From positions 1 to 13,164 of the forward strand of contig CAWBHS010000024.1 of the NCBI GenBank assembly GCA_963788655.1: a DNA stretch of 13,164 nt. The letters are read 5' to 3'. The stretch's first letter is position 1; every line of letters begins with the position of its first letter. A program made the position numbers and the translations under genes. The notes below the pieces were generated by a model. The model was not told the origin of the DNA, did no database searches, and saw only the letters and a list, made by a program, of their open reading frames with translations. The DNA comes from an uncultured Verrucomicrobiae bacterium (GTDB lineage Bacteria > Verrucomicrobiota > Verrucomicrobiia > Limisphaerales > JAFGQR01). Shown here in pieces: positions 1 through 13,164 of this stretch.

Positions 1-69
1 CACACTTTGCGCTTTGCGCTTCGCTGGCGCCTTGCCTATAACCAACCCGTGTCCGGACCCGTCCCGACA

Positions 70-379
70 CCGCTCAGCGGCGCCAGTGTTTTTGCCTGGC
101 CCAGGATGCGCCGGCCGTACCGCTGCGCGGAAGCGTGCCCGAGGCGGGAGTGGCACGGTTGTTTCTTGTCAATCGCACGGCCAGCAAAGCGGAAGCAGTT
201 GCCGCAGAAGTCCGGCAACCTTTTCCCGGCACCGTGGTGGAACTGGGCGATCCAGTGCCAACAGTGATTTGGTGCTGAACACCACGTCCCTGGGGCTGAA
301 GTCGAACGATCCGATACCGCTGGCCGCGATGCCGACGGTCCGTGAAAGCAATATCTATGGAAAATCAGGACGTGTTTGA
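70..379 (+). pseudogene. aroE: Degenerate C-terminal part of shikimate dehydrogenase (AroE-like), frameshifted and internally deleted
   Basis: AroE NADP-domain motifs appear in order across three frames: LSGASVF, VFLPGPGCAGRTAA (cf. VLLLGAGGAGRAA), AGVARLFLVNRTASKAEAVAAE (NRT..KA motif), DLVLNTTSLGLKSNDPIPL (cf. DLxVNATSLG), then an abrupt jump to a C-terminal ...ESNIYG. Start approximate. Confidence 0.65.
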
Positions 380-525
380 ACAACGCAGTCGCCGAGGTGA
401 CGAGGCGGACGCGTCCCTGCATTGTGGTCACAAAAGCCGCCACTTCATCTCGGCAGTTGCGCATCTTCCGTCTTTGCAGACATGCTTTGCAGGCCGCGTA
501 ACTCGACGTTTCACAACCACTGTTT

Positions 526-1626
526 ATGTCACGCTACTTTGATCGCGAAGTCTGGGCGGCAGTGCCGTTCCAATTCTGGGCGGCAGTCTTCTTCGTGTTC
601 GGAGCCATTGTCGGGAGTTTTCTCAATGTCTGCATTCACCGGCTGCCGCGGGGGGAAAATCTCATCCGGCCTCGTTCGCACTGCCCGCACTGCGGCTACA
701 TGATTCCCGGTTATCTGAACATCCCCCTGATCACCTGGCTGGTTTTGCGGGGCCGGTGCGCCAACTGCCGGGCGCCAATTTCGGTTCGCTATTTCCTGGT
801 TGAGCTGCTGACCGCCCTGTTCTTTCTGGCTTGCTGGCTGAATTTCGGACCGCATTCCGTGCTGCTGGCGTTGGTCTATTGCGTGTTGCTGGCGGGCTTC
901 ATCGTGGCCACGTTCATCGATTTCGAGCATTTCATCATTCCCGACGAAATCACCATCGGCGGCATGGTGGTGGGATTCTTGTGCTCGTTCCTGGTGCCCA
1001 TCCTGCACGGCGAATCGGTGCCTTATCGTTCGTTGATCAACAGCTTTGTCGGCATCGTCGTTGGGGCCGGAATGGTGTATCTGATTTTGCGTCTCGGCAA
1101 ATTGCTGTTTGGCCGACAGAACGTGGAACTGGCGCCCGGCACGCGGATCATCTTCACGGAAACCGCCCTTATTTTGCCGGATCAGGAAATCTTTTATGAG
1201 GATCTGTTCTACCGCCAATCGGACACGCTCAAGCTGGAGGGCACACGGGTGGAACTGGTGGACCGATGCTACCAAGAAGCCACCGTGCAGTTGTCGCCGG
1301 AACGCCTGCAAGTCGGCGAAGACACCTTTAATCCCGAAGACGTGCCTCACTTGGAAGTGGTCACGGATCGTCTGGTGCTGCCCCGCGAAGCGATGGGATT
1401 GGGAGACGTAAAGTTCATGGGCGCCATCGGGGCGTTTCTCGGGTGGCAGGCCACGGTGTTTTCGCTCATGGCCAGTTCCATGATTGGCGCGCTGGTCGGC
1501 ATCACACTCATCGTGCTCAAGAAACGTGAATGGTCCAGCCGGCTCCCGTATGGACCCTACATTGCCCTGGCCGCGACGATCTGGGTGTTCTGGGGACGGC
1601 AGATTTGGGCGATGATCTTGCCATAG
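526..1626 (+). CDS. pilD: Prepilin peptidase / N-methyltransferase (peptidase A24A, PilD/GspO family)
   Basis: GSFLNVCIHRLP N-terminal motif, two CxxC zinc pairs (CPHC, CANC), catalytic Asp motifs FIDFEHFIIPD and MGLGDVK, C-terminal PYGPYIA, many TM segments; intact 366 aa ORF. Confidence 0.95.
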   Translation: MSRYFDREVWAAVPFQFWAAVFFVFGAIVGSFLNVCIHRLPRGENLIRPRSHCPHCGYMIPGYLNIPLITWLVLRGRCANCRAPISVRYFLVELLTALFFLACWLNFGPHSVLLALVYCVLLAGFIVATFIDFEHFIIPDEITIGGMVVGFLCSFLVPILHGESVPYRSLINSFVGIVVGAGMVYLILRLGKLLFGRQNVELAPGTRIIFTETALILPDQEIFYEDLFYRQSDTLKLEGTRVELVDRCYQEATVQLSPERLQVGEDTFNPEDVPHLEVVTDRLVLPREAMGLGDVKFMGAIGAFLGWQATVFSLMASSMIGALVGITLIVLKKREWSSRLPYGPYIALAATIWVFWGRQIWAMILP

Positions 1627-1636
1627 AGGCTGGCCT

Positions 1637-1926
1637 CTCCAACGTGCTGCCAGCATCTTGCCGGCAGTTTTGGAACGGAGGACAGCGCAACGAACGGGGC
1701 CAGATGTTCGAACGCGCCTCGGACATCCGATTCTGCCGGCGAGACGCCGGCAGCACGTTACTCCAGCGTGTTGCCGGCATCCTGCCGGCAGTTTTGGAAC
1801 GGACGAGAGCGCAACGAACGGGGCCAGATGTTCGAACGCCCTTCGGACATCCGATTCTGCCGGCGAGACGCCGGCAGCACGTTACTCCAGCGTGTTGCCG
1901 GCATCTTGCCGGCAGTTTTGGAACGG
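1637..1926. repeat. Tandem 124-bp repeat (~2.3 copies) built from inverted REP-like palindromes (BIME-like)
   Basis: Units start at 1637, 1761 and 1885. Each has (a/g)cgtg(c/t)tgcc(a/g)gcat(c)(c/t)tgccggcag, and the two full units also have its near-inverse ctgccggcgagacgccggcagcacgtt. Lies between convergent pilD and aroC. Confidence 0.9.
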
Positions 1927-1937
1927 CCCGTGCGAAC

Positions 1938-2040
1938 CAATGTCCAATGTCCAATCGACCAGTGGCAATCGTGCCAAGTCAGCTTCGTGCTTGGACTTTG
2001 GACATTCTCTGGTCCTTGGCTATTGCTCATTGGTCATTCA
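1938..2040. repeat. Short heptamer-repeat intergenic element (AATGTCC / TTGGACA / TTGGTCA-type blocks)
   Basis: aatgtccaatgtccaat, then the inverse-like ttggactttggacatt and ttggctattgctcattggtcattcatt; overlaps the aroC stop codon. Confidence 0.6.
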
Positions 2041-3122
2041 TTCCGCCGCATTGCGCCTGTTGCCGCAGCGCATGATCCACCAAGACCAAGGCCGTCATGG
2101 CTTCCACAATGGGAACAGCCCGCGGCAGGACACACGGGTCGTGCCGCCCGCGTCCTTTAAGGGTGGTATTGTGGAACGATTCATCCACGGTATTCTGCGC
2201 GTGCATAATGGTCGCCACGGGTTTGAAGGCGACCCGGAAATAAATCGTTTCTCCGTTGGAGATGCCGCCCTGCACACCACCGGAGCGGTTGGCGCTGGTT
2301 CGCACTTTCCCGGCCCGCATCCGAAACGGATCATTATGCGTTCGCCCGGTGAAGTTCACGCAGTCGAAGCCTGAGCCAATATCGAATCCCTTGGAGGCCG
2401 GCAAACTCAACATCGCTTTCGCCAGCTCGGCCTCGAGCCGGTCAAACACCGGCTCCCCCCAACCCGCCGGCACCCCGCGAGCAACACCGCCGACAATCCC
2501 ACCGACACTGTCGCCCGCTTGGCGCATTTTTTCGACGAGGCGGATCATCTTTGCTGCCATCGCCGCGTCCGGGCAGCGGATGATGTTGGCTTCGACGTTC
2601 TCGGGCTTTCACTTTGTTGGGGTCCACGTCAGCCTGGAGGCGCTGCACTTGTTGCACGTAGGCCAGGATTTCCACGCCGTAGCGTTCGCGCAGGAGCTTT
2701 TTCGCAATAGCTCCTGCGGCGACGCGGCCAATCGTTTCGCGCGCACTGCTACGTCCCCCACCCTGCCAATTGCGAACGCCATATTTGGCGAAATATGTGT
2801 AGTCGGCATGCGACGGCCGGAACTTGGTGGCCATCTCCGCATACGCTTCGGGACGCGCATCTTCATTGCGGACCCACAGGCAAATCGGGGTGCCCAGGGT
2901 CTGGCCATTGAAGATGCCGGAGAGGATTTGCACCGTGTCCGATTCCCGGCGTGGCGTGACAATTTTGGACTGCCCCGGACGCCGGCGGTCGAGGTCCGGT
3001 TGAATGTCGGCTTCGCTCAATCGGAGCCGCGGCGGGCAGCCATCCACCACCACGCCCACACCGCCGCCGTGAGATTCACCCCAGGTCGCAATCCGAAACA
3101 AATGGCCGAAAGTATTGCCCAT
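2027..3122 (-). CDS. aroC: Chorismate synthase, with one +1 frameshift near 2606-2609 (probably sequencing error)
   Basis: N-terminal [50 protein letters not shown]-terminal frame has [51 protein letters not shown]. Removing one base in aaa-g-ccc joins the two ORFs. Confidence 0.93.
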
Positions 3123-3130
3123 GCGCGGGC

Positions 3131-3159
3131 AGTGTGGAGGAAAAGAGATGGCAGGTCAA
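3131..3159 (-). promoter_or_regulatory. Putative sigma70 promoter for aroC (near-leaderless transcript)
   Basis: On minus strand TTGACC (3159-3154), 17 nt, CACACT (3136-3131), 8 nt, ATG; no Shine-Dalgarno. Confidence 0.5.
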
Positions 3160-3281
3160 ATCGTGGGAAGGACTGAAAAGATGAACGACGCCATGTCGAG
3201 TGGAGGCTGCTTCACTTTGTGGTGCGCAGCCGGCAGGGCCAGGAATTTGAACGGAATATGGTGGATCAGAATGTGTTCCTG

Positions 3282-3389
3282 TCGGCCGGCCTCGGAGCGG
3301 AATAGGTGCTCGACCACTTGAGACACTGTGCCGGCGGCCAATTCACTGCGTGAAGGACTTTGAATATGGCTCGGCTGAGGCGCGGTCAT
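3282..3389 (-). pseudogene. N-terminal stub of an ECF sigma-70 factor of the YciI-associated type
   Basis: VSQVVEHLFRSEAGR resembles the xEHLFRxExGRxVA start of region 2 in YciI-linked ECF sigmas. The rest of ORF 3156..3389 is unrelated, implying deletion. Gene context fits. Confidence 0.55.
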
Positions 3390-3404
3390 TCGCAGTTTGG
3401 TGGT

Positions 3405-3701
3405 TCAGCCCCCCGCCATGGCGCCCACGATCAGGAACGGCTCCACACCGCTCACGACTGCCTCGGGCAACGCGGCCTCCAGTGGTTCATGCGACAAGTC
3501 CTCCGCGCAGGCGAAGAACCGGACGAACGGTCGGCGTCGCCGCGTGACGTGATCGCGAATGGTTCCGCGCAGCATCGGATAACGATTCTCGATGGCGTCC
3601 AGCAATGTGCCCAACGTTACCGGGCCCGCCACGTCAAGTGACACTTCGCCGTTCACGCCGGCCAACGTGCGCAAGTGGAAAGGCAATGCCACGCGAATCA
3701 T
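3405..3701 (-). CDS. MoaD/ThiS family ubiquitin-like (beta-grasp) protein
   Basis: 98 aa; [36 protein letters not shown]-terminal AMAGG di-glycine; ATGA overlap with the upstream gene. Confidence 0.92.
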
Positions 3702-4858
3702 GGCAGACTCTGGACTTCAACGGACAGGACCGCGGGAAGGTCACGCACGATGGGATTCCACGAATCACCATGGTTGGCCGAAGCATAGACCTGCCGACCG
3801 GTGGTTCCAAAATACACACCGCAAGGCTCCAGCGAATCCACTGCCATTGCATCGCGCAGGACGTTGACGTAGCAATTCGCCTGCGGCAGCCCTTTCGTAA
3901 GCGCTTCCCATTCGTTGCCGCCCGTCCAGCTGCGATAAACGCGCAGCTTTCCGTCCGGCGGAAAATGTTCGGAATCACTTTTGATGGGCACGACGTAAAT
4001 GGTTTCCGGTTCGTGGCTGTGTACTTCGATGGGAAAACCGAAGTCGGTCGGCAAATTCCCACTGACTTCGTTCCATTGCTCGCCGGCATTGTCACTGCGC
4101 ATCACGTCCCAGTGTTTCTGCATGAACAGGACGTCCGGACGCGACGGGTGCAGGGCAATGCGATGGACGCAATGTCCCACTTCGGCATCCGGATCGGGAA
4201 GTTCGTATGGGGACTTGAGGCCCTGGTTGATTGGCCGCCAAGTTTTGCCACCATCATCGGTGCGAAAGGCGCCCGCCGCGGAGATGGCGATGAAGATTCG
4301 CTCCGAATTATTGGGATCCAAAAGAATGGTGTGCAAACACATGCCGCCGGCTCCAGGCTGCCACAAATGACCCTTGGCCTGACGCAATCCGGGCAACTCC
4401 TTCCATGTCTTCCCGCCGTCCACCGTCTTGAATAACGCGGCATCTTCCACTCCAGCATAGACGGTCTCCGGATCGGTCGGGGACGGTTCGAGATGCCAGA
4501 CGCGTTTAAACTCCCAGGGATGCTGGGTGCCATCGTACCACTTATGGGTGCCTACCTCGCCTTCATACACGAACTTGTTGCTCTCGCCGCGGGGCATGCC
4601 GTCCGGGCTTGGTTCTGGACCACCGCCGGGCGTCTCCCACGTTTGACCACCGTCGTTTGAACGCTGGATGATTTGCCCGAACCATCCGCTCGTCTGCGAG
4701 GCGTAAATGCGGTTAGGGTCAATCGGCGACCCTTTGAGATGATACATTTCCCAGCCTGCAAAGTGTGGGCCGCTGACTTGCCAGTTCTGGCGCCGGCCAT
4801 CCGCCGTGAGGATGAATGCGCCTTTCTTGGTGCCGACCAGGACACGGACATTGCTCAT
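3698..4858 (-). CDS. BNR/Asp-box repeat beta-propeller protein (often annotated exo-alpha-sialidase / glycosyl hydrolase)
   Basis: [10 protein letters not shown] start; Asp-box-like repeats [59 protein letters not shown]; no signal peptide. Confidence 0.9.
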
Positions 4859-4889
4859 AGAATGTTCCTTTCTTCCGGTTGTCGCCGAT

Positions 4890-4949
4890 TATTCAGCAAA
4901 TTGATCATTCGTGCCGGCCCAATCCTGTTCCATGCTGTCGCGTTTCCAT
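4890..4949 (-). pseudogene. Scrap of an SRPBCC/AHSA1-domain gene (C-terminal helix only)
   Basis: Translates WKRDSMEQDWAGTNDQFAE*, resembling the AHSA1 terminal helix pattern xMxQGWxGTxDQLAEYL. SRPBCC genes commonly accompany VOC/YciI clusters. Confidence 0.45.
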
Positions 4950-4956
4950 ACGAGGG

Positions 4957-5403
4957 CTATTGCATCTGTTCGGTCCTGACTAGAACCATCCAAGACACGC
5001 CGAAGCGGTCCGCCACCATGCCAAACCGCGGCGAGTAGAACGTTTTGGCCAACGGCATCTGCACCTGCCCGCCGTCACTCAATCCAGCAAAAAACTTTTC
5101 CGCCTCGGCTTCCGTCGCCACCATGATCGCCAGCGAGAAGCCTTGGAAACTGGGCGTGCCGGTGCATCGTCCGTCGGAAGCCATGATAATTGTCCCGCCG
5201 ACACGAAAACAGGCGTGCATGACTTTATCGTCGGAATGGGGCGGACACATTCCGGGTTTGGGCGGCTCCGGACTGTCCTTAAAACGCATCAAGGCGAGGA
5301 CTTCCGCATTAAGAGTGCGGCGATAGAATTCGAGCGCTGCTTGACAGCAGCCATCGAAGAACAATTACGGTTCGATTGTGGGGGTGGTATTTGAGGCAGT
5401 CAT
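4957..5403 (-). pseudogene. VOC/glyoxalase family protein (PhnB-like) with in-frame TAA at codon 13
   Basis: ATG at 5403 gives MTASNTTPTIEP*LFFDGCCQAALEFY (family pattern PYLFFDGxCxxAxxFY), with TAA at 5367-5365. Downstream VMHA, IMASD, MPLAKTFYSPRFGMVADRFGVSWMV. Confidence 0.85.
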
Positions 5404-5419
5404 TGTTTTTCAGTGCTCT

Positions 5420-5645
5420 TTAGTGGTTTGATTGGACGAGTTCCGGTTCAGCTCGCAATTCCTCCGCGAGGGGACATTCGGCCGCCACCGGCCGGACTTC
5501 CACGCGGATGCCGTAGGGTAAGCCGGGACACTCCTGGGCGATGGCCACTGCCTCGTCGAGGGTGCCAACGTGCAGCAAAAAGTAGCCCCCGATGGTTTCC
5601 TTGGATTCGGCGAAGGGACCGTCCACCACCACTCGCCCAGCAGCT
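5420..5645 (-). pseudogene. YciI/DGPF-domain protein, C-terminal half only
   Basis: GRVVVDGPFAESKETIGGYFLL...DEAVAIAQECPG...VEVRPV is the DGPFAESKE signature; the N-terminal half is replaced by unrelated sequence. Confidence 0.85.
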
Positions 5646-5889
5646 CGGTGAACATGGGCGGCATCATCCATGCGATCATCCCGAGTCCCTTGACTGATGA
5701 AGATCCTAACCTCACAGAATCTGCAACCATCGGGAGGAAGGCCAAACACATATAAGCAAAAAACCATCTCAAGGAAAAGACAATGGGCCGGCGACCAATG
5801 AGGGTTTTGAGAGCAATGAAAATCAAGAAGGCCGACATCAGAATGCAGATGAGTGGCATTGCAACTTTGAAAAGGACGGGGGTATTCAT
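5640..5889 (-). pseudogene. Truncated integron-cassette-like membrane protein gene
   Basis: ATG about 20 nt after the attC GTTAGCA core; AT-richer than its neighbours; three hydrophobic segments; runs out of frame into the YciI remnant at ~5640. Confidence 0.6.
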
Positions 5890-5905
5890 AGTATTGTACT
5901 ATTTC

Positions 5906-6025
5906 TGCTAACGCCAGAACTGAGCGACAGCCGCCCCGCCTTAATAATGTCCGTGACTCTCGACAACCAGAGCGCGTTGCCGAAGTCCGCGACTCTCGAA
6001 GAGCAAAGCGGGGCGGCTGTTCGCT
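5906..6025 (-). other. attC (integron cassette recombination site), 3' portion, interrupted by the group II intron
   Basis: Minus strand: AGCGA-ACAGCCGCCCCGC ... GCGGGGCGGCTGT-CGCTCAGT-TCTGGC-GTTAGCA. Perfect 13-bp inverted repeat (5927-5939 / 6008-6020), an extrahelical base, L' box GCTCAGT, GTT core, followed directly by a gene start. Confidence 0.75.
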
Positions 6026-8208
6026 GCCGGGTAGGAGCCGGGGTTGCCCCCGACGCCCCCCACAGACCCGTGCGTGAAGTATTCCCTCACACGGTTCCTC
6101 AGTACCCACCGGTCGGTGGGTGTCCCAGGCCGTTCCCAGCCTGGGCGCATGACGCGTTGCTGCCCACACTCAAAACTCATGGACGATCCTCGGTTTCGGC
6201 AGTGGACAGATCGCCTGCCACCGCACCATCCATTGCTCCCAGTTCAGCCGGTGCTTGGAACTCCGACGGCTCAACCATCGCTTCCACACCCTCTCGGCGT
6301 GTTCATACGCAACTTCCAGCATCTTGAAGTTCCCGCGCACACCATAGTAATCATAGTGCCCGCGTAGTTTGGCCTTCAATATCCGGTGTTGCTCCACGAT
6401 GGGGTCGTGGCGGTGCCTGCGGCACCATTCGTGTATCCCGCTCAGGAACCGGCGCAGCCGTTTCCCCTGGGTTTTGCGTTTGATGGTCCAGCCACCCTTC
6501 AGGGTTTTCCCCCAGTAGTGGTTGAACCCCAGGAACGCGAACGTCCCAGGCCCTTTGCCCTTCCGCCCGAACGGACGACTGAATTGCACCAGCCGGCTTT
6601 TCTCCGGATGGATTCTCAGCCCATACCGCTTGAAGCGCTTGGGCAATACCCGGAACGCTTTCTCCGCGTCGGTCTTAATCGCAAAACCCATGACAAAGTC
6701 ATCCGCAAACCGCACCAGAAAGCAGTTCCCGCCCATGCGGGGTCGCACGACCGTTTCAAACCACTCGTCCAGCACCGTGTGCAGAAAGATGTTTGCCAAT
6801 ATGGGCGAGATCACTCCCCCTTGCGGGGTGCCCGTCTCACTCCGCTTCACTTGCCCTTCCTCCATCACGCCCACGTGCAGCCACATCCCGATCAGTCTCA
6901 GGAGCGCGCCGTCGTTGACGCGCTTTTGGAGGATCGCTCGCAAGTGCTTCGGCTCGATGGTATCAAAGAACTTGGCAATGTCGGCATCGATAATCCAATT
7001 GATGCCCAGCTTCAGACACTGGTCCCGCAGATAGCTCAGTGCTCCGTGCGCGCTGTGCCGCCGCCGAAAGCCATGCGAGAACCCATAAAAGTAGGGTTCA
7101 TAGATCGCTTCCAGCAGCATCGCCACCGCTCGTTGCACGATTTTATCTTCCAGGACCAGGATCGCCAGCGGTCGCTGGCTGCCGTCACGCTTGGGAATCC
7201 ACACCCGCCGGGCCGGTTGCGCCCGATATTTCCGGGTCTTCAACCGTTGCACCAGGTCGGCCAGGTTTTCCTTCAAGTTCAGCTTGTATTCCGCCACGGT
7301 CATCTGGTCGATGCCCGCCGCGGCGTCTTTACGCAGTTGGTGAAAGGCTTCCAAAAGGAAGTCCTCGTCCAGGTGATGAGCCAGGGTGGTAAACACCATC
7401 CCCGGCTCCCGTTTTGATTGCTCCGCAATCTGGGCCAGTCGCATGGATACCGTTGGTGCGCTCGAAGTCACTCCGGTAGTTCCCTGGTCCAGAGGTCATG
7501 CCCGGCTTCGCCTTCCCGCGGCCTCGCGGCCTGTATCGTGGGTCCCTTGGGCCTTGGTTCCCCACGCGTCCGGTCTGGGTGCCGCTCGGCTCCATGACCC
7601 GCGGTACTACGCGTTGCTACGACTACCTTCGTCCGTCCCGGTCGGTTCGCTTGCGGCTCCCTGCCGGTACCTTGGGTTGACGCGCGGCTCTTTGTGTTCC
7701 GTCCGGCTTGCGCCGGGTTTGGCTCGTTCACCGCCCGCCTCCAACGGTAAACGCCCGGGTATTGGTTATGCCGGTCACCCGTGTTCCGGCGGTTGGTCCC
7801 AAGGAGACGGGCGGTTCTCCCGAGTTCCCGGATTACCCCTTTAAGCATACGCCCCGATCTCAGATCCCGGATGGGTCCCGCCCCGCTGGCCTTAACGCGG
7901 ACAGGACGGCTGCCTTCCTCTCGCTGCACGAGTCGGCTTTCGTTCCGGTTGCCCGGACTTCTTCTCTGACCACCACGATACATTTTTCGGGATTCAATTC
8001 CGCGGCCTGCGCCCTCGCTTCCCCTCGGCTTCGCACACCGTCGGCTGACGATCGCACTTCGGTTCCGCTACCGACCCGATGGCTAGTCTTTGGTCGGGTG
8101 GGATTGGTCCGCACCCGCGGACGCACCCACTGGGTAATAATGACGAGTTTCAAGGGGGGTCACCTTGGGGGGCACCCCTATTCCATCGTCCCGAGCTTGT
8201 CTCGGCAC
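6026..8208 (-). mobile_element. Group II intron (retroelement), non-IIC, probably bacterial class E/F-like; 5' boundary 8208-8211
   Basis: 5' GTGCCGAGAC at 8208; about 740 nt structured 5' region; RT ORF; domain V GAACCGTGTGAGGGAATACTTCACGCACGGGTC (6097-6065); domain VI with GCAA loop and bulged A (6032) in CCTACCCGGC. Confidence 0.92.
6170..7471 (-). CDS. ltrA: Group II intron reverse transcriptase/maturase, no endonuclease domain
   Basis: RT0 (AAGIDQMT), RRVWIPK, RPLAI..DKIVQ, SHGFR, DADIAKFFD, GTPQGGVISPILANIFLH, RFADD, FAFLGF, X-domain LRGHYDYYG; ends PLPKPRIVH without HNH. Confidence 0.97.
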   Translation of the reverse strand: MTSSAPTVSMRLAQIAEQSKREPGMVFTTLAHHLDEDFLLEAFHQLRKDAAAGIDQMTVAEYKLNLKENLADLVQRLKTRKYRAQPARRVWIPKRDGSQRPLAILVLEDKIVQRAVAMLLEAIYEPYFYGFSHGFRRRHSAHGALSYLRDQCLKLGINWIIDADIAKFFDTIEPKHLRAILQKRVNDGALLRLIGMWLHVGVMEEGQVKRSETGTPQGGVISPILANIFLHTVLDEWFETVVRPRMGGNCFLVRFADDFVMGFAIKTDAEKAFRVLPKRFKRYGLRIHPEKSRLVQFSRPFGRKGKGPGTFAFLGFNHYWGKTLKGGWTIKRKTQGKRLRRFLSGIHEWCRRHRHDPIVEQHRILKAKLRGHYDYYGVRGNFKMLEVAYEHAERVWKRWLSRRSSKHRLNWEQWMVRWQAICPLPKPRIVHEF

Positions 8209-8210
8209 GA

Positions 8211-8478
8211 CCAGTGGCTGGCTAGCCCTTCGCTCAAGGCAGCGGTTGAATCCCTACGCCTGCCCTTGGCGTTGGAAACGCTGTATCGGTTGCGCCGCCA
8301 GCTGCGTGAGCGACTGGACCGGTTGCGCTCGCGGTTGTGTCGCGAACGCCCACCGCCGGCCAGCACGCAGGCCGATCCCTTAAGGCAAACCGTGGAGCAT
8401 CTCCAAAAGGTGTTCCCTGACTCGGCGTGTCCGCTCGCCGCCTTTCAACTCCATTTTCAGCAACCGTTCTTGGGATAA
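8211..8478 (+). pseudogene. C-terminal part of a transposon-associated hypothetical protein, cut by the intron
   Basis: QWLASPSLKAAVESLRLPLALETLYRL...PPPASTQADPLRQTVEHL...FQQPFLG* is protein-like, has no start outside the intron and sits just upstream of the transposase. Confidence 0.55.
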
Positions 8479-8678
8479 GGTTCCTTCGCCGGGCTTCGGG
8501 CCAGGTCCGAGGTTGGCCGAATTAGCACTGCCGATGTGCTTCGGGCGGATCCTTCGCTTCAGCGACAACGCCATAATATGATCCCCCGGCGAGCCAGCGC
8601 TCTCGTAAGGTCCGCGCCGAAACAAAAACTGCTGCTGCAATCGAATGCCGGCGGCGACAACGACGAAATAAATTATCC

Positions 8679-9923
8679 ATGCGCAATCCAACGGCTTATC
8701 TGAAAATGCGAGTGCTGGGGGCCATCGACATGGCCGCAGGGCAACTCGATTACTGGCCCGCATCAAAGCCGTCAGCCAGATGACGTTCACCGATGAGGAG
8801 GGCCATCCCCGCCAGTTCACCTGGCGCACCATCCAAACCTGGTATTCCCGCTACCAGAAACACGGCGTCACCGTCATGGAAAACCAAGCCCGCTCCGACA
8901 AGGGCAAAGTCCGCAAGGTGGTGCTAGAAGACGTGGCCGAGGCGATCCGCCAGGTGCTGCCCAAAGTCCACGGCAAAACGCCTTCCCGCGCCTTGCTCTA
9001 CCGGCTGTGCATCGAGGCAGGACTGCTCACCCGCTCGCAAATCGCGCCCAACACCTTCCGCCGCGTGGTCAAACAATACGAGTTGCTCAAGCCCGATCGC
9101 GGAGTGCTCGAACAAACTGCGACTGGCCTTTGCCAAGGCCCACGCCAACGAAATGTGGCAGGCCGACACGCTCTACGGGCCCTTCATTCCGGTCAAGGCG
9201 TTCCCCGGTGCAAACCCGGCTCATCGCCTTCCTGGATGACGCCTCGCGCGTTTGTTGCCACGGCCAGTTCTTCGCCGGCGGAAAACGTGGACACGCTCAT
9301 CGAGGCCTTGCGCGCGGCCTTCTACAAACGCGGCGTACCCCAATGCCCTCTATGTGGACAACGGATCGATCTACGCCTCCAAAGAAATCATCCAAATCTG
9401 CGCCCGCGTCGGCTGTCTGCTCCTCCACACGCCCGTGCGCGACGGCGCCGCCAAGGGAAAAATCGAACGGTTCTTCCGCACCGTGCGCGACCAGTTCCTC
9501 GCCCGCGAGCTGGATCTGTCCTCGCTCGAGGCGCTCAACCGCCAGTTCACCGCTTGGGTCGAGGAACACTACAACGCCCAAAAGCATTCGGTGCTGGGCA
9601 TGACGCCCGCTGGACCGCTTTGCGCTGGACCGAAATCGCATCCGCTTCCTGCCGCCCAACGAGGCCAACGACGAACTGTTCTTCGTCGAGGAAGAGCGCC
9701 ACGTCCGCGCCGACAACACCTTCTCCTTCAAGATCGTGCGCTTCGAAGCCCCGCGCCACCTGCCCGACCGCACCATCCAGATCCGCTTCGAGCGTTCGCA
9801 GCCCACGCGCGCGTCGTCGTTTATTACAAAGGCGAACGCATGGGCGAAGCCCGTCCGCTCAACCCCATCGCCAATGACCGCAAACCCTCAACTCGAAACA
9901 CTCCACCTACAACCGACTTATGA
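8679..9923 (+). CDS. DDE-type integrase/transposase (rve core, Mu-transposase C-terminal like), multiply frameshifted
   Basis: Stitched frames: MRNPTAYLKMRVLGAID, FTWRTIQTWYSRY (HTH), RSDKG, ANEMWQADT (D), RLIAFLDDASR, LYVDNGSIY (D), KGKIERFFRTVRDQFL (E), YNAQKHS, RHVRADNTFS. Confidence 0.88.
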
Positions 9924-10741
9924 TCCGCTCCCACTTCGGCCTCCACGCAACCCCTTCGACACCGAGTCCCTCACCCTGCTGGCCCACCAGCAGGAAGTCT
10001 TCGACATCCTCCAAGTCCACGCCCAGCAGGGCGGCCTGTGCCTGGTGCTCGGCGAACCCGGCACCGGCAAGAGCGTCCTCAAACAGGCCCTGCTCACCCA
10101 CGATCCCAAACGCATGATCACGCCCGTGGTCAATCGCACCCTGCACACCTATCACAACACCCTGCGCATCCTTTGCGACGCCTTCCAGATCGAGTTCGAC
10201 GGGCGCGACCACCACTGCGAACGGCTCCTGGTCCAGCAGGCCTTCAGCGTCCACCGCGCCGGCAAGATGCTCGTCCCCATCATCGACGACGCCCACCTCA
10301 TGCCCACCGACTGCCTGCGCAAACTCCGCCTGCTTGTGCGAGGACTTTCCCCGCTCCCACAACCTGGTGCTCATCGGCCAGCCCCCGCTCATGCAATCCC
10401 TGACCCTGTCCATCAACGAGGAAATCCGCTCCCGCGTCACCTACTCGGCCCTGCTTGCCGCGCCTGGGTCCCGAAGCCGTCGAACAGTTCATCCTCGACC
10501 AACTCGACCGCGCCGGCCTGGGCCACAACACCTTCACCGCCGAAGCCCTCGCGCTCATCGTCCGCTCCGGCGAAGGCCTCCTGCGCCGCACCCGCAACCT
10601 GTGCCTGGGCGCGCTCATCGAAGCCGTGCGCGACCAGACCCGCACCGTCGACCTCAAACAAGTCAACCGCGTCCTCCTCCAACCCCACTGGCGAAAAGAC
10701 TATGACCAACCCGCTCCCCTACAACCCCGGTGGACGCGTGA
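9920..10741 (+). CDS. ExeA/GspA-type AAA+ ATPase (transposition helper, MuB/TnsC/IstB analogue), frameshifted
   Basis: MIRSHFGL..NPF start with ATGA coupling to the transposase; Walker A GEPGTGKS; Walker B IIDDAH; LVLIGQPPL; IRSRV; SGEGLLRRTRNLC. End approximate. Confidence 0.85.
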
Positions 10742-10980
10742 GCAAATCCGCGCCGCCCGGCTGGCCCCGCTCGTGCCGCTGCTCGAAAAGCGCGGGCTCG
10801 AACTCGTCGAACCGCGCGGCCGGCAACTTCAATTTGCCCGCCTATCCCGGCCTGATCGTCAAAGACAGCTACTGGCGCTGGCCCGAACGCGACCTGGCCG
10901 GCAACGCCATCGACTTCTTCATGCACGTGCTGGGCCTGTCCTTCCACGACGCCATGCGCCAGATCACCGGTGCGCAATAG
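10702..10980 (+). CDS. Small hypothetical protein resembling a primase N-terminal (CHC2-type) domain without the Cys ligands, frameshifted
   Basis: Stitched: MTNPLP..WTREQIRAARLAPLVPLLEKRGLELVERAAGNFNLPAYPGLIVKDSYWRWPERDLAGNAIDFFMHVLGLSFHDAMRQI. GNAIDF...GLSFxDA matches the DnaG/CHC2 tail pattern. Confidence 0.55.
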   Translation: MTNPLPYNPGGRVSKSAPPGWPRSCRCSKSAGSNSSNRAAGNFNLPAYPGLIVKDSYWRWPERDLAGNAIDFFMHVLGLSFHDAMRQITGAQ

Positions 10981-11055
10981 AACTGCAACCGGCTCCGGAC
11001 TTTGTCGCCGTACGACCTCAGTTCGGACACCGGCCCGCATCCAATCAAAATCGGG

Positions 11056-12389
11056 ATCGGTGTCAAACCTAGGGAGCTATCATCTCGCATACAAGGCCTT
11101 GAGCCGGAGCACGGCGACGGCTTCCGTCGCTTGGTCCTGGAGGGAATGGCGAATCCATCGGATGAACTTCACGCTGCGCTGGGTGGCCCTTCGCGCTTGC
11201 ACCACCAGGGCGAAAGGGACTGGCCCGCGGCCGACATTTCGTGTTCGCCGCTTGCGTTCGTTGGGCCCGCCGTTGGTCTTCGGCTTGGTTGGTGACCCCG
11301 TGCTCGGTCGCCAACGTTTGTTCGTAGCCCAGCAGCAGATTGTGCGTCATCGCGATCAATTGCGCTTGGGCCGTCTTTGGCCACCAAGCTCGTCGCCCAG
11401 GCTTTCTTTTCGGTCAGCTTGTTCTTGATCTCATCGAACACTTTCTCCACTTCCCAGCGCCGCCGATACAATTCGGCGATGACGCCCGGCGGCAGGTCCA
11501 TCTCATTGGTCAAGAACTCATACCGCTCGCCGGTGAGCGGATCAGTGTAGTAAACAATCCGCAAGGCATGTCCTTCGCGCGTCCGCACCTGCCGGTCTTC
11601 GGTCACCCCGGCGTTGCGGGGATCGGACTCGTCCCAGGGCACGCTCTCGAGCCAATCGTAAACCATGTTCTCTTTCACTCGGCTCAGGAAATAGACCGCG
11701 CATTCCTGGCGGCAGCGCTTCCAATAGTGGAAATCAATGCCCGCTTTGTCATAGATGCAGATCACCCGTTTGCCCTTCGGCACCCGCTGTCGCAGACCTT
11801 TGGGTTTGATCCGTTTGAGCGCACTCATGTCGTGTTCGTGTAAGCCCTGGCCGGCGGCCAAGTGCTCCAGCAGCTGCGTCCGCAGGTTCAGACTATAAAA
11901 ATGGCCCACCGCCAGCTTGGCGCCCTCGTGGCGCGGATCGTGGGTCGCCGCCTGATGCCAGTGGCCGTCTTGAGTAAAGCATTCATACTGGGCTAACTCG
12001 GGAATCGCCGCCAACCGATCGTGGAGGGGGCGGTGGGCCGCCGTGAGCAACGTGAGGTTGACCGCGCGCAGGACCGCGCCGCGGCGGGCGCTCTGCAGGG
12101 CCGCAAAGTAATTGGAAGTAGCCCGGGGTGTTCGCGAAGCGCAGCCCGTGTTCCTGGAGAAAGCCCCGGCCACTTGCCGAGCGTTCGAGCACGCGTTGGA
12201 CGCCCAAGCGGAGGAACGCTTCATCCGGGAACTCCGGGCACGGACGCGCGTGCGAACTAGCGGCGGCCAGGCCGTTGAGTGGTTGAAAGATGGTCTGATT
12301 CACGGTGTTATGTTTTTGAGTAATAGGCATTGAAGCAATTTTGGCGGCCCACGGCCCTGTCAAGCCTATTTGTTGACCTTATACGCCTC
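11056..12389 (-). mobile_element. IS4-family insertion sequence; boundaries tentative
   Basis: Single DDE transposase; weak terminal similarity (GGTGTCAAA vs GGCGTATAA) and CGGG on both flanks (11052-11055, 12390-12393). Confidence 0.6.
11080..12330 (-). CDS. IS4-family (DDE_Tnp_1) transposase, frameshifted
   Basis: ATG 12330 MPITQKH; QDGHW (D), IYDKAGID (D), YEFLTNEM, LYRRRWEVEKVFDEIK (IS4 YREK motif); C-terminus RATQRSVKFIRWIR...LYAR*. Frameshifts near 12117, 11375 and ~11210-11250. Confidence 0.88.
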
Positions 12390-12526
12390 CGGGTGAGGTT
12401 TTTTCGCGCGCGGAGACGTTCGAAGACCCGCGCCATCGCGACCCGCGGAAGCCGCTCCTCCGGGTCATCCTGACCCGATTAACCTTCACAATTCCCTGGC
12501 ATTCATGGACACCATTCCAAAATCGG

Positions 12527-12758
12527 CTCGGTACGATGTCAGTGTGGGTATCGGATCGGATGCAGTCTCGGTACGATGGCAACTTGGTGAAAAATCTTAC
12601 CCCTCTGAAACAATCTGGAAATGCATCCACCCGGTCGTAACCGTACGACCAAAGCACGGTTATTTGAGCACGAATTACGATGGCAGTCTGGTCAACCACT
12701 CAAAAACCGTACGACCCCAGCCCGGCCAAAAAGTACCATCAGAAAAAAGTGCGTAACA
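12527..12758 (-). repeat. Array of direct sub-terminal repeats (consensus about YTGnnRTCGTACSG on minus strand), putative transposase binding sites
   Basis: GTACGA-type cores on + at 12531, 12571, 12643, 12675 (ttacga), 12709 and 12733 (gtacca), plus one at 11010 on the other side of the IS4. Confidence 0.65.
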
Positions 12759-13164
12759 CCTTGGCCTGAACAATTGGGGGTGAAGTTATAGCCGTCGGTG
12801 TGAACCGTCGTGTGAAAGCGGGTCTGAAAATCAGTTCTCGCGAATGGTTCAACGGCGGAAGTTGTCGGGTTCATCAGCCAGCCCTGCAGGGATACCTCCC
12901 AGATTCGCCAAAACGCCATTTCACACCCGTTAAGCACCACCGCCTCCGAATCCAGTGCAGATAGATGGTATTCGTGCCTTCGGTGAGATCGGGCGCAATA
13001 TCCTGCTGGAAGTGTTCAACATCCTGGTCGCCGGCGATTGATTCAGACCAGACGAGATCTTCAACGTTGGTCCCATTGACATAGACCTTCTTGAACAGGC
13101 TTCCGTACCGGACACCTCCACTGTCTTCCGGAGCAATGCAACTGTCGACCGTATCACAATGGAA
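12759..13164 (-). pseudogene. Hypothetical (possibly secreted beta-rich) protein entering from the window edge, interrupted by the transposon end
   Basis: Open frame FHCDTVDSC...KKVYVNGTNVEDLVWSESIAGD...DLTEGTNTIYL; frameshift near 12955; continues LDSEAVVLNG...FTPNCSGQG and runs into TGTTACG without its own stop. Confidence 0.5.

Follow-up and report, generated by a model that had tools for sequence, protein, structure and literature searches.

The principles of transposition by Mu, Tn7, IS21 and Tn552 are well established, and in both Mu and Tn7 the target duplication is 5 bp long. Tn552 of Staphylococcus encodes a transposase (p480), an ATP-binding protein (p271) and a resolvase (Bin). One passage of PMC3276174 gives the length of the Tn552 target duplication as 6 bp. 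Subterminal repeat arrays are described in an excerpt of PMC8649781 for the ends of Tn7, Tn5090, Tn5053 and Tn552, together with the asymmetric multi-site architecture of the ends of Tn7, Tn5053, Tn552 and Mu. The subject of the present study is a segment (positions 8212-12758) of a bacterial contig, C24, which was analysed over its entire length of 13,164 bases and is termed here the window. On the combined evidence of its genes, its ends and its relatives, this segment is very probably an immobilised copy of a cargo-free transposon of ~3.6 kb, of the type "DDE transposase + AAA+ helper", with the gene order orfU - tnpA - ATPase - ORF3, and its broken reading frames would most likely be assembly errors.

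The window belongs to an assembly (G000) of 8.96 Mb in 115 contigs, 86% complete and 5.6% contaminated. Contigs of this assembly are designated by C-numbers and the loci of relatives by L-numbers; G378 is a relative genome. The layout of the window is based on a search of G000 against itself and on domain scans.

The four-gene module and its relatives

The four open reading frames (ORFs) of the transposon lie on the plus strand at 8212-10980. A first-pass annotation, made from the DNA letters alone, had described an rve transposase and an ATPase bracketed by two small ORFs, and four same-strand ORFs of this description are indeed present, the first of them only as a fragment. The orfU fragment (8212-8478) encodes the C-terminal ~88 amino acids (aa) of the protein, its N-terminal zinc ribbon being missing. 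The tnpA gene (8679-9923) encodes a DDE (rve) transposase of ~405 aa, which starts with MRNPTAYLK, ends at a stop codon at 9921-9923 and contains nine single-base frame breaks. The gene for the AAA+ ATPase (AAA_22, ExeA/MuB-like, ~270 aa) occupies 9920-10741, with its stop codon at 10739-10741 and five uncompensated frame breaks. The stop codon of tnpA and the start codon of the ATPase gene overlap as ATGA at 9920-9923, in agreement with the translational coupling that had been proposed for the two genes. ORF3A (10702-10980, ~90 aa) begins within the 3' end of the ATPase gene, and of its three frame breaks two are common to both genes.

A scan of genome contigs with a TnpA alignment gave 405 pattern matches, of which 334 were confirmed as relatives, and the best 79 loci were kept. 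These derive mostly from metagenome-assembled genomes (MAGs) of Verrucomicrobiota, and also from Myxococcota, Planctomycetota, Lentisphaerota, Proteobacteria and others. In its intact form, the operon consists of orfU (165-185 aa), TnpA (~405 aa), the ATPase (~265-270 aa) and a small ORF3. The ATPase gene adjoins tnpA in 57 of the 61 loci with room for it, and orfU adjoins tnpA in 62 of 69 loci (divergently in 3), whereas the fourth slot is variable, being occupied by ORF3A in 34 of 54 loci, by ORF3B (178 aa) in 4 and by neither in 16, several of which carry a third small ORF. Conservation of the four genes as a group, which was open to question in the first-pass annotation, is therefore confirmed, with a last position that varies in content. 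Complete units measure 3.3-3.7 kb (~3.6 kb for the family), with ends and duplications directly outside the four genes, and many of the relatives are whole contigs of 3-5 kb. Elements such as that of the window break metagenome assemblies into contigs of ~3-4 kb.

At E ≤1e-30, TnpA relatives fall into at least 4515 protein clusters (90% identity), among 7999 candidates scored; their source annotations are limited to "putative transposase", "InsO family" or "DDE-type integrase". Of 401 genomes from the phylum, 18 (G000 included) matched the ATPase piece of the window at E ≤1e-5, and five genomes other than G000 did so at E ≤1e-26. On plasmids, the best match of TnpA is a multi-copy element of an Undibacterium plasmid (48% identity), followed by matches of 31-33% identity in Actinobacteria and Firmicutes. 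The Undibacterium plasmid, from a cultured isolate (L097, 2767-5734), bears three to four copies of a relative that is 42-48% identical, and the annotation of one copy fuses TnpA and the ATPase into one "ATP-binding protein" of 686 aa. A tblastn search with TnpA also found Tn552-type plasmid genes of Staphylococcus and Enterococcus (~25% identity over 65% of the query, E about 1e-11), and the matched Staphylococcus genes are annotated "Mu transposase C-terminal domain-containing protein".

The domain composition of the two large proteins is that of a transposase and its helper. Pfam identified rve_3 in the TnpA and AAA_22 in the ATPase of the window pieces, rve and HTH_32 on TnpA of intact relatives, and Mu-transpos_C on TnpA of G378. 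The catalytic triad (D162, D225 and E261 in the numbering of L015) is invariant, follows the D-D-35-E pattern and is retained in the window copy, and the Walker A (GEPGTGKS) and Walker B (IIDDAH) motifs of the ATPase are both conserved. The best NCBIfam models for TnpA are IS481 with 160.2 bits (cut-off 224) and, for the intact L015 TnpA, IS21 with 74.7 bits (cut-off 160), followed by ISNCY (74.3, cut-off 250) and IS3 (73.4, cut-off 160); on the TnpA piece of the window, the IS21 model NF033546 scores 37.6 bits against its cut-off of 160. Since TnpA reaches no curated insertion sequence (IS) family cut-off in NCBIfam, the original description of the element as poorly classified is fair. For the ATPase, NCBIfam ranks the ExeA-like TIGR03015 first, with 86 bits and below its cut-off of 324.5; among the 10 Pfam families matched at E ≤0.1, AAA_22 is the best and IstB_IS21 is absent, so that its characterization as ExeA-like rather than IstB-like is upheld.

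Among solved structures, the nearest to a single TnpA sequence is IstA of IS5376, an IS21-family element (E 7e-9), and a three-sequence TnpA profile matched TnsB of a type V-K system (E 2e-6, catalytic core only) and IstA (E 3.7e-5). A 46-sequence profile of the ATPase matched the clamp-loader gamma subunit (E 2.5e-5) and MuB (8xvb, E 6.5e-5), and gave a weak match to VchTnsC (E 0.23).

The IstA match, the order of the NCBIfam scores, gene sizes of 405 and 269 aa and multi-repeat ends that resemble those of IS21 would all be expected if the element belonged, as a divergent member, to one of the named IS families IS21 and IS481 and its extra ORFs were incidental; some plasmid homologues are in fact annotated as IS481 family. 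We regard this assignment as improbable. The scores remain under the cut-offs of both IS481 (NF033577) and IS21, the ATPase lacks an IstB_IS21 match, and IS481 elements are single-gene elements, as opposed to the four conserved genes of the present family. Moreover, the frequencies with which orfU (62 of 69 loci) and ORF3A (34 of 54) accompany tnpA indicate that the extra ORFs are not incidental. Mu-transpos_C on the G378 transposase and the MuB match of the ATPase profile are, in turn, the features to be expected of a Mu-like transposable prophage of which just the A and B genes remained. Such an origin is very improbable, because complete units of 3.3-3.7 kb have their own ends and duplications, many relatives amount to no more than a 3-5-kb contig, and phage genes flank none of the loci read.

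A description of the four-gene family was not found in a full-text literature search, the scope of which lay outside ISfinder and TnCentral. A related exeA-int gene pair beside mcr-9 is mentioned without interpretation in a passage of PMC13049778.

In relatives, full-length orfU (~165-185 aa) combines an N-terminal C4 zinc ribbon, in which C15, C18, C50 and C59 (L029 numbering) are invariant, with a helical C-terminal part resembling a helix-turn-helix (HTH) domain. The window fragment is 65-73% identical to the C-terminal ~88 residues of orfU in L037, L027 and L024. In the AF2 (AlphaFold2) model of the protein (pLDDT 93.2, pTM 0.84), six helices come after a zinc ribbon of three strands. Nothing in the Foldseek pdb set matched the model at E ≤0.001; the Foldseek-independent VIA search gave generic HTH DNA-binding domains as its best matches (Z 5.0, residues 67-157) and the NrdR zinc ribbon at Z 4.1, TniQ structures being absent among the matches listed. 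No Pfam family fits orfU (2 proteins searched at E ≤0.1 and 46 at E ≤10), and TniQ was unmatched. Among weak matches, the Lar_restr_allev zinc ribbon is the most frequent (21 of 46 members, best E 0.0011). A further candidate, DUF6431 (an Atlas lead with a score of 0.94), was rejected, as 0 of 46 members match this family in Pfam.

It had been suggested that the small ORFs might act as target selectors analogous to TniQ or as replication-fork adaptors. The first suggestion finds no support, since orfU has no clear fold match and neither orfU nor ORF3 has a TniQ match in Pfam, though a distant relationship may exist; the second is conjectural. Its zinc ribbon and HTH-like domain, its upstream position and its divergent orientation in 3 of 62 loci suggest instead that orfU is most likely a DNA-binding regulator or an end-binding accessory factor. 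In some relatives, a gene for a SEC-C-motif/TPR protein lies divergently upstream of orfU (L015, 3198-3785; L014, 4768-5460; also L036 and L071). These proteins are 38-55% identical between loci, and the gene may represent a fifth member of the module in one sub-lineage.

The last gene had been labelled primase-ZnF-like, and structural comparison bears out this label in fold. The AF2 model of the ORF3A orthologue of L029 (94 aa, pLDDT 90.6) has as its top match the zinc-binding domain of Bacillus stearothermophilus DnaG (1d0q_A, 102 aa), with Z 8.2, a root-mean-square deviation of 2.9 and 23% identity over 82 aligned residues in VIA, and E 1.6e-3, prob 1.00 and TM 0.66 in Foldseek. The next VIA matches are the N-terminal domains of Twinkle (Z 5.2) and T4 primase (Z 4.3), with the remainder at ≤2.9; the three matches that follow 1d0q_A are also described as primase N-terminal domains. 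The entire 94-aa model superposes on the DnaG domain. Unlike DnaG, ORF3A stands alone, without a primase catalytic domain and without zinc ligands: in an alignment of 32 sequences, no Cys or His occurs in the invariant or near-invariant columns, which indicates that ORF3A has lost the CHC2 zinc site. The family comprises 1257 cluster representatives at E ≤0.001, and these are stand-alone small proteins (56-194 aa in the 150 listed). In L086 (~7653-8405), the ORF3 slot holds a Cys-rich version of type A with a CxxC...CxxC pattern. Its occurrence there suggests a true zinc finger as the ancestor of ORF3A. The occurrence of a primase zinc-binding-domain fold within a transposition module is unusual.

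The overlap of ORF3A with the ATPase gene, and the variation by lineage of the slot downstream of the latter, suggest that ORF3A works together with the ATPase, most likely as an accessory that would link the ATPase or the transpososome to DNA or to the replisome. From its modelled primase-domain fold, ORF3A may touch replisome proteins or DNA that is single-stranded or primed. A prediction of the complex of ATPase and ORF3A scored 0.00 against a mark of 0.32, which gives no answer and is evidence in neither direction. The slot is filled in relatives by type A (the primase zinc-binding-domain fold), type B (178 aa) or a third type of ~70 aa. A broader proposal, tentative and on balance unlikely, would be that the position downstream of the MuB-like ATPase accommodates interchangeable small adaptors, through which the ATPase or the transpososome is connected with the replisome of the host or with DNA that is primed or forked. 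ORF3A would then steer insertion to forks or recruit priming for replicative transposition, and would form together with orfU a minimal, TniQ-independent system of targeting and regulation.

Transposon ends and target sites

The ends of the family were defined by two copies (L037 and L039) in a single MAG, which share 99.945% identity over 3615 bp and lie in unrelated surroundings. Both copies have the ends TGTTAAGTGCCG...AAGTGCGTAACA (i.e., TGTTAAG...GCGTAACA), and each is bordered by a 6-bp duplication of its own, CCTGGT or CTTGCT. Both termini were located in 14 loci by a regular expression allowing 2 mismatches, and identical flanking 6-mers occur in four of these: L027 (ACAAGC), L031 (GGTAAA), L037 and L039. 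The family is abundant and has recently been mobile in Verrucomicrobiota MAGs. In the window, the terminus AAGTGCGTAACA at 12747-12758 matches the intact relatives L037, L031, L039 and L076 in 12 of 12 positions, and the homology of independent copies stops exactly at the equivalent of 12758, the position at which the right boundary had originally been placed. The adjacent CCTTGG (12759-12764) is the presumed right target duplication, and it remains presumptive because the left copy is lost.

The repeated motifs that had been noticed in the right end correspond to six copies of a 19-22-bp repeat, all in plus orientation, starting at 11008, 12529, 12569, 12641, 12673 and 12707. The bare hexamer GTACGA is a weak signal by itself (6 seen vs 2.5 expected, with 10 of 200 shuffles reaching 6). 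A position matrix built only from the six repeats of the window was scanned over relatives. In 5 of the 5 relatives with both ends defined, it located six plus-oriented sites at 277, 228, 188, 116, 84 and 50 bp from the right terminus. The window sites lie at 51, 85, 117, 189 and 229 bp from 12758, and the sixth at 278 bp (277-278 bp in relatives) once a nested IS4-like element and its duplication are subtracted. Of 6 left ends of relatives, 4 contain an inverted site at +9 and 4 one at +43, and a direct site is present at +70 in all 6. The left end anticipated in the first-pass annotation, with TGT, inverted repeats and a target-site duplication, is thus found in relatives (as TGTTA, inverted sites and 6 bp), and none of it is found in the window. 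The ends of the family are therefore of asymmetric multi-site architecture, with the termini TGTTA...TAACA.

The right end of the window copy is present in two parts. The inner part (10981-11054) includes the first site (11008-11026) and aligns to positions 20-71 of the 300-bp right ends of relatives, and the outer, repeat-rich part (12519-12758) includes sites 2-6 and the terminus and aligns to positions 64-300.

Insertions are observed at varied sites with unrelated duplications, and site-specific targeting is without support. Targeting of tRNA genes was considered and rejected: of 23 long loci, 2 contain such a gene, and in only 1 does it directly adjoin the element. A strict Tn7-like element, in which orfU or ORF3 would serve as a TniQ/TnsD-type selector for a fixed attachment site, would nevertheless account for several features: asymmetric multi-site ends with TGT...ACA, TnsB as the best solved match of the TnpA profile, the proximity of the G378 relative to a tRNA-Asp gene (~70 bp), and an ORF3 slot that varies between lineages, as target selectors do. 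The probability of this alternative is low. The four duplications and their flanks are unrelated to each other, the duplication is 6 bp vs 5 bp in Tn7, orfU is without a TniQ match at either threshold, the ATPase profile scarcely recognizes VchTnsC, and there is neither TnsA nor cargo. In Pfam and NCBIfam scans of the element proteins, neither a resolvase nor TnsA was found, and the four genes fill the 3.6-kb unit.

State of the window copy and its surroundings

The left boundary had been placed at 8211. At this point the element in fact meets a group II intron (6020-8208, minus strand) that is not part of the transposon; orfU is truncated there and the left end is lost. The intron contains an intact ORF (6170-7471) for a reverse transcriptase (RT)/maturase, recognized by Pfam as RVT_1 and by NCBIfam TIGR04416 with 333.9 bits (cut-off 300). 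Its 5' terminus is GTGCC at 8208, and Rfam group-II-D1D4-6 matches at 8107-7855 on the minus strand. The intron is 89% identical to C38 58229-56048 over 2198 columns, and additional copies on C62 and C59 are partial or ORF-less. In both full copies (C24 and C38), TGGTC closes the 5' exon and a hairpin-forming inverted repeat opens the 3' exon. Homology to orfU begins at 8212-8218, at the intron junction. Past the 3' terminus of the intron, a 116-bp hairpin repeat and then unrelated genes (a YCII-like gene and one for a small membrane protein) are found, and no orfU. The 116-bp repeat (5910-6025), with a perfect 16-bp stem (5927-5942 with 6005-6020), abuts the intron 3' end and has copies of 82-90% identity on C38, C9 and C49.

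The position matrix found an inverted site nowhere in the window, and the left end is likewise absent from it. When G000 was searched for the left end by exact motif and by blastn, only chance-level matches were obtained, including an 11-mer on C49 without left-end continuation. A tblastn search of G000 for the N-terminal part of orfU (the first ~80 codons) with 7 orfU proteins matched 8212-8475 only; no left junction with a matching target duplication was found in G000, and the self-search found no second DNA copy of 8214-11590. The window copy is thus truncated at its left, either by deletion or by rearrangement at the intron. With the left end and the first ~80 orfU codons gone, it cannot transpose as a unit.

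The right end had been described as long and non-coding. Its length is due to an inserted IS4-like element (11055-12518, minus strand), which lies between sites 1 and 2 and carries its own transposase ORFs (12363-11983 and 12224-11169), matching Pfam DDE_Tnp_1 and the NCBIfam IS4 model with 67.9 bits (below the cut-off of 115). The element is flanked by an 8-bp duplication, AAAATCGG (11047-11054 and 12519-12526), and the right ends of relatives align to 11004-11054 and resume from 12519 with an 8-base overlap. A boundary at 11143 was replaced by 11055 once these right ends had been aligned. The IS4-like element is 98% identical to a partial copy (C61 385-1310), the match ending at 12518. Two single-base indels distinguish them; one breaks the frame of the window element and the other that of the C61 copy.

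In order to assess the broken frames, the closest relative, L029, was taken as the reference (87.8% nucleotide identity over 2306 columns). Relative to L029, the coding region contains 15 uncompensated single-base frame breaks and one compensated pair, and 13 of the 15 are net +1 insertions. When these indels are removed, the amino acid identity to L029 is 88% for TnpA, 94% for the ATPase and 89% for ORF3. The differences are concentrated in third codon positions (33:20:104 by codon position in TnpA, 13:5:47 in the ATPase and 9:4:18 in ORF3), with 0 premature stops. In TnpA, all 51 invariant and all 108 near-invariant residues are retained (52 sequences); the corresponding figures are 45 of 45 and 52 of 53 for the ATPase (the exception being a gapped codon), and 11 of 11 and 14 of 14 for ORF3A. 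Other G000 genes are broken as well: on C45 (51013-58956), rpoB is divided into 3 pieces that lie in two frames, and rpoC into 6, an in-frame TGA occurring once in the latter. Because G000 carries many indel errors, frameshifts in this genome are not evidence of pseudogenes without reads. The 15 breaks are most likely errors of sequencing or assembly, judging from these comparisons.

The alternative is that the window copy is a decayed pseudogene relic, its 15 frameshifts being real mutations that followed its disabling by the intron and the IS. We consider this unlikely, though of appreciable weight. Relaxed selection is plausible, since two other insertions have disabled the element, and the breaks in 8679-10980 are about ten times denser than in the other genes of the contig, with one in aroC and 0 in the RT, BNR and peptidase ORFs. 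Bacterial decay is deletion-biased, as opposed to the excess of +1 insertions observed here. Decay also fits poorly with the strong third-position bias, the lack of premature stops, and the retention in total of 107 of 107 invariant and 174 of 175 near-invariant residues; moreover, the essential rpoB and rpoC are frame-broken too, and the overlapping ends of C24 and C93 (see below) disagree by indels. We therefore retain the interpretation of the segment as a disabled transposon copy with probably artefactual breaks, and the frameshifts of this contig as a problem of assembly quality.

Several observations weigh against this interpretation. The density of ~6 breaks per kb, compared to ~0.5-1 per kb in rpoB, rpoC and the rest of the contig, is more than a uniform error rate can explain; unpolished repeat or GC-rich sequence is possibly behind it. 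When sequencing runs were searched for the window stretch, no run containing it was found, the best sharing 0.11 of the sampled words. G000 lacks a left end, a second DNA copy and an orfU N-terminus, so that the status of the window copy as a transposon rests on its relatives. Among the 14 loci with both termini, 10 lack the 6-bp duplication; in these, the ends set by the regular expression may be imprecise or the copies old. As to the ATPase, its single sequence has no significant match to any solved structure, and the Staphylococcus Tn552 plasmids are not among the 68 plasmid records found with it by BLAST.

Beyond the right terminus, an ORF on the minus strand leaves the contig edge (12759 onward). 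The proposal that the transposon end cuts a gene is without confirmation: this frame is open up to 12759, but a homologue of the flank protein, which would show the uninterrupted form, was sought in 40 related genomes and none was found. The last 347 bp of the contig (12818-13164) dovetail with the end of C93 (45992-46337), 344 of 348 columns being identical with 1 substitution and 3 gap positions. C24 and C93 are thus probably neighbouring contigs, and C93 ends 60 bp short of the transposon terminus. The opposite side of the window (1-6019) contains housekeeping genes for a prepilin peptidase, chorismate synthase (split between two frames), a BNR protein and a glyoxalase, as well as a YCII-like gene. 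The chorismate synthase gene (aroC; 2027-3122, minus strand) consists of two overlapping frames. A ~124-bp tandem unit occurs at 1632-1964 (1637-1802 and 1761-1926 are 94.6% identical), and has >100 matches (74-94% identity) across many G000 contigs, often in tandem arrays. The unit looks like a genome-wide repeat and possibly encodes a repeated protein module.

Comparison with known transposition systems

The comparisons above establish to which families the four genes belong, their synteny, the transposon ends, the 6-bp duplications, recent movement of relatives and the fold of ORF3A, while all biochemical roles of the four proteins are inferred from the anatomy of the element and by analogy with Mu, IS21, Tn552 and Tn7. 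TnpA, with its rve fold, would bind the arrays of ~19-bp subterminal sites (six direct on the right; two inverted and one direct on the left), pair the TGTTA...TAACA termini and transfer the 3' OH of each to the target DNA, at positions separated by 6 bp. The AAA_22 ATPase would coat or mark the target DNA and activate TnpA in the manner of MuB, IstB or TnsC. The product of orfU would regulate the process or bind the ends, and ORF3A would assist the ATPase by linking it to DNA or the replisome. The window itself offers a modest result, a single copy that is disabled and interleaved with an intron and an IS. As a family, the compact four-gene system lends itself to the study of how small accessory proteins are connected to an AAA+ activator of the target.

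The division of labour between a DDE transposase and an AAA+ activator of target DNA is that of Mu A/B and of Tn7 TnsB/TnsC, which likewise have asymmetric TGT...ACA ends. Unlike these systems, the present elements are only 3.6 kb in length, lack cargo or phage genes, TnsA and any detectable TniQ, and produce 6-bp duplications at varied targets. IS21 also combines a translationally coupled rve transposase of ~400 aa and AAA+ helper of ~265 aa with multiple terminal repeats and an absence of cargo; the differences are the low TnpA score with the IS21 model (74.7 bits against 160), the AAA_22/ExeA-like ATPase, and the presence of orfU and ORF3. Tn552 shares with the present family an rve/Mu-type transposase of ~400-480 aa, an ATP-binding helper of ~270 aa, subterminal repeat arrays and a target duplication of the same length. 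The TnpA identity to Tn552-type proteins is, however, ~25% over 65% of the sequence; here the resolvase (Bin) and cargo are lacking and orfU and ORF3 are additional, and the arrays are asymmetric as opposed to the ~120-bp inverted repeats of Tn552. Tn552 is thus the closest described system in size and in its 6-bp duplication, and IS21 is the closest as a cargo-free, two-protein core.

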